A DNA stretch of 12,554 nt from a virus (Duplodnaviria; Heunggongvirae; Uroviricota; Caudoviricetes). The notes under the pieces are model-generated. The model saw nothing but the letters and a program-made list of their open reading frames with translations, had not been told where the DNA came from and searched no databases. Where the stretch lies: the IMG/VR virus record IMGVR_UViG_2740892211_000014; one strand, 5' to 3'. Shown here one piece after another: positions 2,835 to 8,394 of the stretch (its first letter is position 1; every line of letters starts with the position of its first letter). A program made the position numbers and the translations under genes.

Positions 2835-3074
2835 TTGATTTTCCTTTTATGTATACGGGCTTAAAAGGATACCACCGAGCCTGAAGTGGTGAAAAGACAG
2901 GCACATAACAGCTAAGTATTTTCAACCAAAGAGAATCCTTAGCGTTGTGGTGAATGCGGCTCAGCGCACGCGGGTTAAGGTTGAGGCTGACAGTCGACCT
3001 TCTGTGGATACCCACCCGTCTGGTGTGCAACCTTCGCCAGGCACCGGGAGGCACCCGGCACCACAACTTTATGC

Positions 3075-3134
3075 TGTGTGTAGTCCTGGCGGTACCAGTT
3101 TGTACCCTTGCTTCCGGCTGGTACCGCTCTTTTT
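3075..3134 (+). ncRNA. Candidate DicF-like prophage sRNA ending in an intrinsic terminator
   Basis: Perfect 10-bp stem GCGGTACCAG (3089-3098) / CTGGTACCGC (3118-3127) followed by TCTTTTT. TGGCGGTACCAGTTTGTACCC resembles the 3' half of E. coli DicF (recalled as TGGCGGTATCAGTTTTACTCC ... CCGCC-TTTTT). Lies in an ORF-free stretch downstream of the immunity region, as dicF does in Qin. 5' end undefined. Confidence 0.3.
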
Positions 3135-3135
3135 A

Positions 3136-3222
3136 CAAAACAGAGAAGAGCATCACCGGACGACGGGCTCATAACCCAATCCATCCGGGCGGCGGTCACC
3201 GCAGGTGTTCTTCTCTGTTTTG
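3136..3222. repeat. 14-bp perfect inverted repeat flanking a 59-bp GC-rich spacer
   Basis: CAAAACAGAGAAGA (3136-3149) and TCTTCTCTGTTTTG (3209-3222) are exact reverse complements. Starts immediately after the terminator T-run. Spacer contains further short GC stems (CCGGA...CCGGG, CACCGC). Confidence 0.6.
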
Positions 3223-4508: not shown

Positions 4509-4715
4509 ATGCTGAACCTCGATTGTGTTCCAATCTCAACTTATTGCAAAGAAACTGGCGAAACTCCTGAAGCAATAAACAAACGTGTACAGCGCGGTGT
4601 TTGGCGTGAAGGTGTTCAGGTTTTAAAGGTTGAAGGCGTTAAGGAGAGGTGGATTGATCTTAGTGAGGTTGCAAAATGGGCCAGACAAAACTGCTCAAAC
4701 TACCGCGCGGCGTAA
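4509..4715 (+). CDS. xis: Excisionase-like DNA-binding protein
   Basis: ATG 4509 with GTGGAG upstream at 6-nt spacing. 68 aa, MLNLDCVPISTYCKETGETPEAINKRVQRGVWREGVQVLKVEGVKERWIDLSEVAKWA has excisionase-like winged-helix features. 3' end overlaps the int start by 40 nt, as in lambda xis-int. Confidence 0.6.
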   Translation: MLNLDCVPISTYCKETGETPEAINKRVQRGVWREGVQVLKVEGVKERWIDLSEVAKWARQNCSNYRAA

Positions 4716-5848
4716 CAATCAGGAAACACCGCCAGGGCGAAACGATCAATATAACTTTCACCTACAAAGGAGTTAAATGTCGTGAGCCTCTTTCCAATCT
4801 GGAAGTAACACCAAAGAACATTAAATACGCTGAGCGCACACTCGGCGAAATTCATAATAAGATCGAAAGGGGAACATTCATTTATGCGGAATATTTTCCC
4901 CGTTCTGCTCGTTTGAAAATTTTTGGTAATGCTGCTGCAGGCAAAACGGTAAAAATGTACCTGGACGAATACCTTGAAATCTGCGAAACGAGGAAACTTT
5001 CACCATCCACGATCGGTGGTTATAAAAAATGCCGTAGTGCGTTAGCCTCACTTCACATTTGCCCTGCAAGTGAATTAACACCAGCAACCCTGAAAGCGTG
5101 GATTCAAAGCCAGAAAACGACCTTAAAAACCATTCGCAACCAGTTATCTTTCCTGCGGTCAGCACTTGATGAAGCCGTGACCGATGGGGTACTTCAAATT
5201 AACCCCGTATCGTTAGTAACAGCTTCGCGCTACCAAAGTGATAAGTCAGAAGCAGAAAGCAGCTACGTAGTTGATCCGCTATCACCAGCAGAAGTTGATG
5301 CATTACTAGCAGCAGCCGGAAACAAACAATGGGAAAATCTGTTCCGGTTCGCTATACATACAGGCCTGCGTAGTTCTGAATTATGTGCCCTTCGATGGCG
5401 TGATATCGACTTTGTTGGAAAAACTGCCCATGTCCAGAGCGCAAGTGTTGTCGGTGTTATCAAAGGGACAAAGACAAAAGCAGGTACTCGGAAAGTTGAA
5501 CTGACAGAAGAGGCAATGTTGGCGCTGATAAATCAGAAGCCATTTACATTCATGAAGGATGCTACTGTCTTTGAAGATCCAAAGACCAATAAGCCTTGGG
5601 CAAGTGCTGATGCAATTAGGAAAAAAGCATGGGTGCCAACATTGCGAAAAGCAGGTATTCGTTACAGAAACCCATATCAAACCAGGCATACATTCGCCAC
5701 CAGCCATATCAGCCGAGGAGCAAACCTGTTTTGGCTTGCAGCTCAAATGGGGCATAAAGGGCCGGAGATGCTTTTCAGGCACTATGGTTCGTATCTTAAA
5801 GAGTATGATAACTTTACATCGATAAATCATTTGCATAATCATAATTAA
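4676..5848 (+). CDS. int: Phage tyrosine integrase (lambda-Int type with arm-binding N-domain)
   Basis: 390 aa. N-terminal KLPRGVTIRKHRQGETINITFTYKGVKCRE is arm-binding-like. C-terminal domain has the conserved R (FAIHTGLRSSE), the H-x-x-R context (RHTFATSH) and tyrosine in LFRHYGSY. Adjacent to the att repeat. Confidence 0.9.
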   Translation: MGQTKLLKLPRGVTIRKHRQGETINITFTYKGVKCREPLSNLEVTPKNIKYAERTLGEIHNKIERGTFIYAEYFPRSARLKIFGNAAAGKTVKMYLDEYLEICETRKLSPSTIGGYKKCRSALASLHICPASELTPATLKAWIQSQKTTLKTIRNQLSFLRSALDEAVTDGVLQINPVSLVTASRYQSDKSEAESSYVVDPLSPAEVDALLAAAGNKQWENLFRFAIHTGLRSSELCALRWRDIDFVGKTAHVQSASVVGVIKGTKTKAGTRKVELTEEAMLALINQKPFTFMKDATVFEDPKTNKPWASADAIRKKAWVPTLRKAGIRYRNPYQTRHTFATSHISRGANLFWLAAQMGHKGPEMLFRHYGSYLKEYDNFTSINHLHNHN

Positions 5849-5889: not shown

Positions 5890-6669
5890 TTGATTACAAT
5901 TACATTCGACAAACTAATCACCTACATATCTTCAGTTGGTACTTTCATTTCAGCAATTGCTGCATTATATGCAATATGGTTAACGATATTTCAAAGAAGG
6001 CTCTCTTATAAACCCAATTTAGTGATAGACACTTTAAATATCAAGATGAATGTTAACGATTTCAACGGTTTTCATGTTGATATCTTACAAGCCCCTACGC
6101 TTCCACAAACAAAATTTTCAAACATAGGATTGGGGGCGGCAATTTCACTTAGATATCATTGGGATTTTAATTATAAAAAAAACATAAATCTATATTTAGA
6201 GTTGTTTTCGAAAAAATTCAAAAAAGAAGATAAATCTTTTACAACCGACTCCCAGTATGGAATATTCAAAATAATAAAAGAAAGAAAAGTATATATGTAC
6301 AATACTTTATCGACACCTTACGATATTGATTTTTCGTTACCATATAGTATAGATAAGAAGTCAAAAAACATTTTTGTACCAACCGCGGCAATTGATATTC
6401 TATTGAATATAGCATATCTTTCACATAGACTTAAATTAGTCGGTTCTTCATCATTCACTGGTCCAAAATTAATTATTGAATATCAAGATATAGAGGGTAA
6501 AACTAAAAAAGTCACTTGGCAAACAAAATTGGAACGTGGAGTGGCACGTTTCAGTGGTGATAATATGGAGGCAGATTTTGCACTACGGTTTACACCTGTA
6601 CCAGAGAAATGGACTACAAAAGGTCTAGAGAAGATACGCAAAAGCGCCGCAAACGCCATGTTCAGATAA
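5890..6669 (+). CDS. Hypothetical membrane-anchored protein, AT-rich cargo (moron) gene between int and att
   Basis: 259-codon ORF with TTG start; first in-frame ATG is codon 53. N-terminal hydrophobic segment ITYISSVGTFISAIAALYAIWLTIF predicts one TM helix before a ~220-aa Lys/Asn/Ile-rich domain. Markedly AT-richer than all flanking genes. No family recognised. Confidence 0.55.
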   Translation: MITITFDKLITYISSVGTFISAIAALYAIWLTIFQRRLSYKPNLVIDTLNIKMNVNDFNGFHVDILQAPTLPQTKFSNIGLGAAISLRYHWDFNYKKNINLYLELFSKKFKKEDKSFTTDSQYGIFKIIKERKVYMYNTLSTPYDIDFSLPYSIDKKSKNIFVPTAAIDILLNIAYLSHRLKLVGSSSFTGPKLIIEYQDIEGKTKKVTWQTKLERGVARFSGDNMEADFALRFTPVPEKWTTKGLEKIRKSAANAMFR

Positions 6670-6698
6670 ATATATAATTAAAACAACAGGTTAATATT

Positions 6699-6734
6699 TT
6701 TCAGACACGGGTTCAACTCCCGCCAGCTCCACCA
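6699..6734 (+). repeat. Diverged copy of the 3' end of the tmRNA gene ssrA (attachment-site repeat; not a full gene)
   Basis: TTTCAGACACGGGTTCAACTCCCGCCAGCTCCACCA matches the recalled ssrA 3' end (TTTCGGACGCGGGTTCAACTCCCGCCAGCTCCACCA) with 2 mismatches at the 5' side. No upstream tmRNA body is present in the window. Confidence 0.6.
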
Positions 6735-6861
6735 ATCATGATTGGACGGTGTAAGGACTACACCAACAAAAACAGGAAGTTATAAGTCTCAGCAGAACAC
6801 CGACCAGACGGTGAGGAGACAAAAAAGGATACGCAACGGAGTCGCGACTCCCTATGACATT

Positions 6862-6888
6862 AAAGCCCGCATCAGCGGGCTTTTTTAT
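6862..6888 (+). terminator. Rho-independent terminator, probably the native terminator downstream of the ancestral ssrA 3' end
   Basis: AAAGCCCGC-ATCA-GCGGGCTTT stem-loop followed by TTTTATT, ~130 nt downstream of the ssrA 3' fragment. Confidence 0.65.
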
Positions 6889-7317
6889 TGGTCCTGACCC
6901 GCCCTGAATAGAATTCATCCAATTACAGTCCAGACATATACAGTATCCCTCAGCTCAGTATCAGCTTCTCGACAAATGGTCACTGTTATTTACCCGTTGC
7001 CAGAAAGAGAATAATTTGCCCCCATAGCCAGCCTTCCCGGAATCTGTATATTCATTAATATTGTTATCGATTCCATCAAGTAACATAGGTTGGATGCGAT
7101 TGATCTTACTCACATTAGTCGACACGGAACTCAGTAAGTTGAACTCTGAAAAAGCAGTTTAAATAGCATTTAAACAAATGCCACCAGTTCGAAAAAGAGT
7201 ATAAGCACACTTAATATATTGTTTTAATTATTCATTTCCTTTCAACCCAATTCTTATCCCTCACATTATTTGTTATTAATTTGTTGTTTTTGATCACAAC
7301 AAGAAAACAATATGTAA

Positions 7318-8394
<1,077 letters not shown>

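Follow-up and report, generated by a model that had tools for sequence, protein, structure and literature searches.

The window, as the whole stretch of 12,554 nucleotides analysed here is called (IMG/VR virus record IMGVR_UViG_2740892211_000014), starts inside a prophage whose early genes end in an excisionase, an integrase and a cargo gene. These are followed by the 3' end of ssrA, the tmRNA gene, and then by a trailer, a predicted terminator and the chromosomal genes glaH(csiD)-lhgO-gabD-gabT, in this order. The features of the locus are as follows.

4509-4715, plus strand: excisionase gene (recombination directionality factor), overlapping the start of int; phrog_2917, E 7.7e-44
4676-5848, plus strand: tyrosine integrase of 390 aa with an N-terminal arm-binding domain (heterobivalent, lambda-like)
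5890-6669, plus strand: accessory (cargo) gene between int and att; phrog_7259 (function unknown), E 2.1e-85
6670-6707, plus strand: phage-derived P arm beside the core, the same in the attR of the related lysogen R12 and, further upstream, unlike ssrA
6699-6734, plus strand: displaced 3' fragment of ssrA (attR repeat), undamaged, CGCCAGCTCCACCA
6707-6711/6719-6723, plus strand: T stem within the ssrA fragment, with the T loop at 6712-6718
6724-6730, plus strand: acceptor strand within the ssrA fragment, followed by ACCA at 6731-6734
6708-6758: block of 51 bp identical in the attR of the window and the attL of R12
6735-6889, plus strand: native 3' trailer of ssrA with four conserved hairpins, the same as at the empty site
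6862-6889, plus strand: predicted intrinsic terminator of the native ssrA unit (hairpin 4 of the trailer), downstream of int and the cargo gene in the lysogen
6890-7416: native ssrA-glaH intergenic DNA, of which only about 7219-7416 is common to K-12-like genomes
7417-8394, plus strand: glaH (csiD), the first conserved chromosomal gene past the junction

Positions 6699-6734 correspond to the last 36 nt of E. coli ssrA (ssrA positions 328-363) and end in CCA; they read TTTCAGACACGGGTTCAACTCCCGCCAGCTCCACCA, compared with TTTCGGACGCGGGTTCAACTCCCGCCAGCTCCACCA at the 3' end of ssrA, the mismatches lying solely at 6703 and 6707. The first-pass annotation of this DNA had described a 36-nt ssrA-like segment with mismatches on its 5' side and an identical 3' core, which was borne out. 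The 25-mer at 6710-6734 has no second copy in the window, even with three mismatches allowed, no match to it was obtained in any of 200 shuffled sequences, and the Rfam tmRNA model recognised 6690-6734 as a 5'-truncated match (model positions 329-374, 33.8 bits, E 2.4e-12). A chance match is therefore ruled out. A search of the window with ARAGORN did not find a complete tmRNA gene, as expected for a fragment of 36 nt. The final nine nucleotides of the P arm (6699-6707, TTTCAGACA) mimic ssrA and bear both mismatches, which lie on the phage side of the crossover.

Comparison with an island-free strain defined the limit of the island. In strain Trh52 (E. coli O84:H7), smpB and ssrA are followed by a stretch of 682 nt matching window positions 6735-7416 at 682 of 682 positions, and then by glaH. 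An intact ssrA running uninterrupted into the downstream DNA of the window was found in 709 of the 5426 complete E. coli genomes, using a query made up of 200 nt from the 3' end of ssrA and 366 nt of the DNA that follows, and requiring at least 80% coverage in one piece. The same order is present in Escherichia whittamii, with identities of 99.4% for ssrA, 91.7% for the trailer, 84.9% for the remaining intergenic DNA and 94.4% for glaH. Since both the empty-site strains and E. whittamii match, the DNA from 6735 onwards, including the terminator, is the native ancestral flank of ssrA. The earlier suggestion that this is the ancestral ssrA terminator holds, as ssrA leads directly into it in Trh52, in the 708 other genomes and in E. 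whittamii.

The position of the boundary has to be refined in two respects. The first-pass annotation had placed the beginning of the chromosome after the terminator; a boundary does exist here, but native DNA begins inside the ssrA fragment, and everything from 6735 onwards is that of the empty-site strains. It had also described conserved chromosome straight after the boundary, which is correct from about 7219 onwards but not for 6735-7218, a segment present in only about 1100 of the 5426 complete genomes. Nearly all E. coli share only the last 200 nt or so before glaH (about 7219-7416), and in K-12-like genomes an unrelated trailer, which derives from the cryptic prophage CP4-57, comes after ssrA. 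The order ssrA-trailer-glaH thus represents an ancestral arrangement that has been lost in K-12.

An alternative would be that the trailer and terminator at 6735-6889 were brought in by the phage as its P' arm. Phages of this kind, such as the free phage LLS, do carry a very similar trailer and terminator; however, the allele in the window is the one found directly after ssrA in prophage-free strains and differs at about 20 positions from that of attL and LLS, which refutes this explanation and leaves it very unlikely.

As the window starts inside the prophage, attL and the intact ssrA were read from the related lysogens R12 and Ecol_AZ146; the closest matches to the whole window are 97-98% identical. 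In R12, an intact ssrA with the orientation of the fragment is located about 41 kb upstream of it, and one complete prophage lies between the two. This prophage carries, in order, genes for restriction-modification, an invertase, tail, head, terminase, lysis, Q, replication, immunity, yfdP/Q/R-like proteins, Xis, Int and the cargo protein. The 25-nt core, GGTTCAACTCCCGCCAGCTCCACCA, occurs at just two places in R12, in ssrA and in the fragment. The same layout extends over about 45 kb in Ecol_AZ146, whose junction matches that of the window at 98.7%, a level like that of O25b:H4-ST131 strains among the matches listed. The tail modules of the two lysogens differ, being sheathed in R12 and lambda-like in Ecol_AZ146. 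The proposed location of int and the cargo gene at the end distal to the intact ssrA was thus confirmed in both lysogens, where ssrA lies upstream in the same orientation. The junction of cargo gene, fragment and native flank was found in at least 156 complete genomes of E. coli, including those of ST131 strains. The ssrA of the R12 lysogen is identical to that of the empty site at 363 of 363 positions.

A type II restriction endonuclease and a DNA cytosine methyltransferase are encoded directly inside attL, beside the phage-supplied terminator of ssrA. These genes (L002 20317-21525 and 18849-20282; L109 4923-7599) are present in both lysogens despite their differing tails.

An alignment of the attR of the window, the attR and attL of R12, the attB of Trh52 and the attP of phage LLS revealed the reciprocal pattern expected of site-specific integration. 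In attR, bases left of 6708 are of the phage type and those to the right are native; in the attL of R12, native ssrA lies on the left and phage-type bases appear from 6759, these variants being common to the attP of LLS. The four sites therefore align as B-O-B' (attB), B-O-P' (attL), P-O-B' (attR) and P-O-P' (attP of the free phage), and the earlier interpretation of the segment as an att repeat left by integration into ssrA was upheld. The differences between attL and attR are at 6703, at 6707 and then at 6759. Since the two are identical over the 51 bp from 6708 to 6758, strand exchange must have taken place within this block. The first difference between the attP of LLS and attB is at 6748; assuming the same crossover for phage LLS, the block would be reduced to 6708-6747.

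The 51-bp block starts one base into the T stem. This stem (6708-6711/6719-6722), with the T loop (6712-6718) between its strands, could serve as the inverted-repeat core typical of the T-loop/junction class, one of the classes of tDNA integration sites (PMC4383910). Within the tRNA-like domain, the T loop or the T stem is the most probable place of strand exchange.

The repeat shared by attL and attR is much longer than the 36 nt given in the first-pass annotation. It measures about 190 nt, comprising the end of ssrA and a stretch of about 155 nt from the CCA to the T run of the terminator, and thus runs through the whole trailer and terminator. The phage copy of this stretch is 87.5% identical to the native one in the attL of R12 and 83.1% identical in LLS; the phage-type allele is GGAGCCGCGGCTC, with the loop TTAT. 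A search for integrase arm-type repeats common to the P arm and the trailer in the window and in LLS yielded just short two-copy matches. These were the 9-mer GATACGCAA, found at 6633-6641 (3' end of the cargo gene, P arm) and 6828-6836 (trailer), and GTCTCAG.AGGAC in LLS; they were rejected as candidate arm sites, since the two phages have no common repeat, and are probably due to chance.

Taken together, these data support, with a probability of about 0.93, the conclusion that the junction is an ordinary attR of a lambda-like prophage in E. coli ssrA, with the native end of the gene and its terminator leading into the chromosome. It is a standard member of a well-described class, and its int-att module has already been described for phage LLS. 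The course of integration may be reconstructed as follows. The attP would lie just 3' of the xis-int-cargo genes and consist of a mimic of the last 36 nt or so of ssrA together with a diverged copy of about 155 nt of the trailer and terminator. The arm-binding tyrosine integrase would exchange strands within the 51-bp stretch (6708-6758) that is identical between phage and host. The host retains a full ssrA, whose 3' end, trailer and terminator come from the phage after integration; this is attL, located some 41-45 kb upstream in the related lysogens. The original end of ssrA, with its trailer and terminator, is moved to the far side of the prophage and joined to the 9-nt phage mimic with its two mismatches (attR), where the displaced native terminator could now stop transcription leaving int and the cargo gene.

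The integrase matches the Pfam families Arm-DNA-bind_2 (5.4e-23), Phage_integrase (3.6e-16) and Phage_int_SAM_5, and phrog_1 in PHROGs. It is 100% identical to its counterpart in strain C1, 99.2% identical to that of R12 and 86% identical to the integrase of phage LLS, whereas the excisionase is 88% identical to LLS gp33, annotated as a putative excisionase. At all 16 loci compared that have an integrase of this type (65-100% identity), int is located 0.25-2.4 kb upstream of the trailer and on the same strand; after integration, it therefore always adjoins the displaced fragment, at a distance from the intact ssrA. No free phage with this exact int-cargo module or an identical integrase was found in the phage collection, the best integrase match being that of Citrobacter phage phiNP, with 84% nucleotide identity.

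The cargo protein is 27% identical (E 1e-22) to LLS gp31, encoded at the same position. It has no match in Pfam or PADLOC, and in PHROGs it belongs to a family of unknown function; the gene may be an accessory gene expressed during lysogeny. The N-terminal stretch aligned to LLS gp31 (residues ~10-34) looks mostly hydrophobic.

Escherichia phage LLS (GenBank PQ299149; PMC12315714) has the same arrangement of yfdQ/yfdR-like genes, xis, int, an unknown gene, an ssrA-like attP, a trailer and a terminator, but it differs in having its own P arm and its own mismatches to ssrA. Its att site is annotated as 'tmRNA pseudogene/attP', and its authors deduced that the phage inserts at the 3' end of ssrA; they gave an identity of just 29 bp, leaving the trailer copy undescribed (PMC12315714, Genome Res 2025).

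The module resembles that of phage lambda in the overlap of xis with int, the transcription of int towards attP and the arm-binding integrase. In lambda, the sib/tI region, a structured RNA with a terminator, lies beyond att relative to int, to which the layout in the window can be likened. Unlike lambda, the phage in the window targets an RNA gene, and its attP mimics the end of the gene and the trailer. Retroregulation of the lambda type, in which sib is separated from int, is not expected here because the integrated int again has a near-identical trailer downstream.

The first-pass annotation had compared the site with that of CP4-57 in K-12. The target gene is indeed ssrA, but the elements are not akin: the integrases are unrelated (E 0.013 over 86 aa between the window integrase and IntA, without meaningful similarity), int lies at the opposite end and the fragment is undamaged. 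Both elements enter the 3' end of ssrA and supply the end of the gene and a terminator. However, the int of CP4-57, encoding the P4-type integrase IntA, adjoins the intact ssrA, while that of the window is at the end with the displaced fragment, and the CP4-57 trailer is not homologous to that of the window. The displaced fragment of CP4-57 lacks T357, so that its excision inactivates tmRNA (PMC10107115). Descent of the junction from a P4-like element of the CP4-57 type, such as left its remnant in K-12, could be considered on account of the common target gene and the frequency of P4-type integrases at ssrA (PMC10107115, Table 1), but such an origin is refuted and hardly credible. In addition to the differences just mentioned, the element is a full tailed prophage with no P4-family integrase beside the intact ssrA, and its fragment reads CGCCAGCTCCACCA, without a CGCCAGC-CCACCA-like deletion and free of the delta-T357 damage listed for all six elements with P4 integrases (PMC10107115, Table 1).

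Several ssrA islands, including CP4-57, have fragments with a small deletion that yields inactive tmRNA upon excision, and both damaged and undamaged classes have been tabulated (PMC10107115, Table 1). Since the displaced fragment in the window is undamaged, excision of the prophage should restore wild-type ssrA; unlike CP4-57, this prophage is thus predicted to be able to leave without harming tmRNA. Damaged ssrA fragments (GCCAG-----CC or GCCAGC-CCACC), located ahead of the same trailer, also occur in some IMG/VR contigs (L007, L067, L093 and L046) with integrases 97-98% identical to that of the window, whereas those of the window, R12 and L034 are undamaged. Damage to the fragment is thus not linked to the type of integrase, as near-identical integrases are accompanied by fragments of both kinds.

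Tandem or composite islands had also been suggested for this site, which would place another island between ssrA and the element, or between the fragment and glaH. Such arrays do occur at ssrA, and Islander gives 125 tandem arrays among its 3919 islands. An example is strain C1 (L005 22735-27780), whose integrase and cargo protein are 100% identical to those of the window. There, the fragment leads into a trailer like that of CP4-57 and on to a second island, with a P4-type integrase (48% identity to IntA), a serine recombinase, a fragment of ParB and ISKpn26, before glaH is reached. This tandem array has lost the native trailer, and the right flank of C1 differs from that of the window despite the complete identity of the integrase and cargo proteins. 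In the window, however, the fragment is followed by the 682 nt of the empty site and glaH; no integrase was found between 6735 and glaH, and the window contains only one ssrA fragment. A single complete prophage fills the interval in both R12 and Ecol_AZ146, and the core is present no more than twice. A tandem array is not needed to explain the position of int, because this integrase family always places int beside the displaced fragment, a layout constant at 16 of 16 loci and in the free phage LLS. The suggestion was therefore not supported, and an array at this junction appears improbable.

A single lambda-like prophage at ssrA fits a general principle, according to which a regenerated tDNA and a displaced fragment mark the ends of an island (PMC4383910). 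As in the tDNA islands of the Islander database (Hudson, Lau and Williams 2015, PMC4383910, where Williams 2003, 'Traffic at the tmRNA gene', is cited), an island with a tyrosine integrase lies between a regenerated gene and a 3' fragment in the same orientation, and the crossover would fall into the same class, the T loop or the T/acceptor junction. The fragment reaches the exact 3' end of the gene in the orientation of the gene, which agrees with that in R12 and Ecol_AZ146; the tyrosine integrase is encoded inside the element, attB is unoccupied in other strains and the attP core is present in the free phage LLS. Compared with the Islander islands, attP and attB have far more in common than the gene fragment, their homology of about 190 nt reaching to the end of the terminator. 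The assignment fixes the right limit of the prophage in the at least 156 complete E. coli genomes, which is its value for annotation.

The structured trailer of ssrA, copied by many phages, is a modest lead beyond the routine. Its hairpins 1 to 3, which precede the terminator, are located as follows.

6748-6753/6759-6764, plus strand: hairpin 1, loop AGGAC
6786-6790/6816-6820, enclosing 6798-6802/6809-6813, plus strand: hairpin 2
6838-6842/6847-6851, plus strand: hairpin 3

The predicted terminator has a stem of nine pairs (6862-6870/6875-6883), six of them G-C, with a 4-nt loop, followed by the T run TTTTTTATT. The hairpin, the T run, its place after ssrA and the covariation of the stem, one pair of which changes from G-C to A-U in 8 of 41 sequences, indicate that 6862-6889 is probably a Rho-independent terminator. 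The terminator loop (6871-6874) reads ATCA in the window and Trh52, and the reverse complement TGAT in the attR of R12, Ecol_276 and many viral contigs, a hairpin-loop inversion polymorphism that leaves the stem unaltered.

Trailers were collected by the exact 22-mer at 6799-6820, giving 41 distinct, mutually related sequences, in which 97.4% of the cells of the four hairpins (five helices) are paired, compared with 41-50% in slid controls. Six pairs show compensatory changes on both sides, including 6748/6764 (G-C to A-U in 13 sequences), 6752/6760 (U-A, C-G or A-U) and 6842/6847 (C-G to U-A). The first hairpin given by RNAalifold was replaced by a hand-drawn one showing covariation. G-U pairs form only on the plus (ssrA-sense) strand, and the single-sequence fold of the trailer has a z-score of -4.1. 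Rfam searches of the whole window, and a sensitive search of 6690-6910, returned no family for the trailer, only weak matches driven by the terminator. The 22-mer is present in 91 viral contigs and in representative genomes of 10 species, including E. albertii, E. ruysiae, E. whittamii, two Citrobacter species and Pseudenterobacter, and the trailer was found beside several kinds of ssrA-like fragment and at least two unrelated integrase types. Its unpaired stretches, containing GGA motifs, are nearly invariant; the enrichment of the six conserved GGA motifs is weak, as 140 of 5000 shuffled sequences also reach six. A minus-strand ORF of 60 aa (6736-6918) spanning the trailer and terminator was rejected as a coding sequence: it has no Pfam match, and the compensatory changes and plus-strand G-U pairs favour an RNA.

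The safe reading of these data is that the trailer and terminator form a conserved structured module, copied by phages in order to rebuild the whole ssrA transcription unit upon integration. One could further hypothesise that the trailer (6735-6889) is a functional structured RNA, co-transcribed with tmRNA and freed by 3' processing, of which ssrA-targeting phages, with integrases of at least two unrelated types, would carry a copy in order not to destroy it. The compensatory hairpins, the ssrA-sense G-U pairs, the near-invariant unpaired GGA stretches the wide occurrence and the lack of an Rfam family all argue for such a function. On the other hand, K-12 and C1 work with an unrelated, shorter trailer, collection by an exact 22-mer inflates the apparent conservation, the GGA enrichment is weak, and repeated integration and excision of phages could spread and homogenise the segment without any function. 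A functional RNA is a tentative proposal, considerably less probable than its absence. Possible roles would be those of a small RNA, a sponge for protein or RNA, or a platform for the processing of pre-tmRNA; the 3' external transcribed spacer of the glyW-cysT-leuZ tRNA operon offers a comparison case for a trailer-derived RNA or sponge. If functional, the trailer would be a new RNA element on a universally studied gene and would explain why the phages carry about 190 nt of host-like sequence.

A separate observation concerns the early region of the prophage, where R12 has an intact yfdQ and the ORFs of the window look broken. Positions 2922-3136 (plus strand) match the Rfam family STnc100, a gammaproteobacterial small RNA, with a score of 42.1 bits (E 1.8e-6), below the gathering score of 47.
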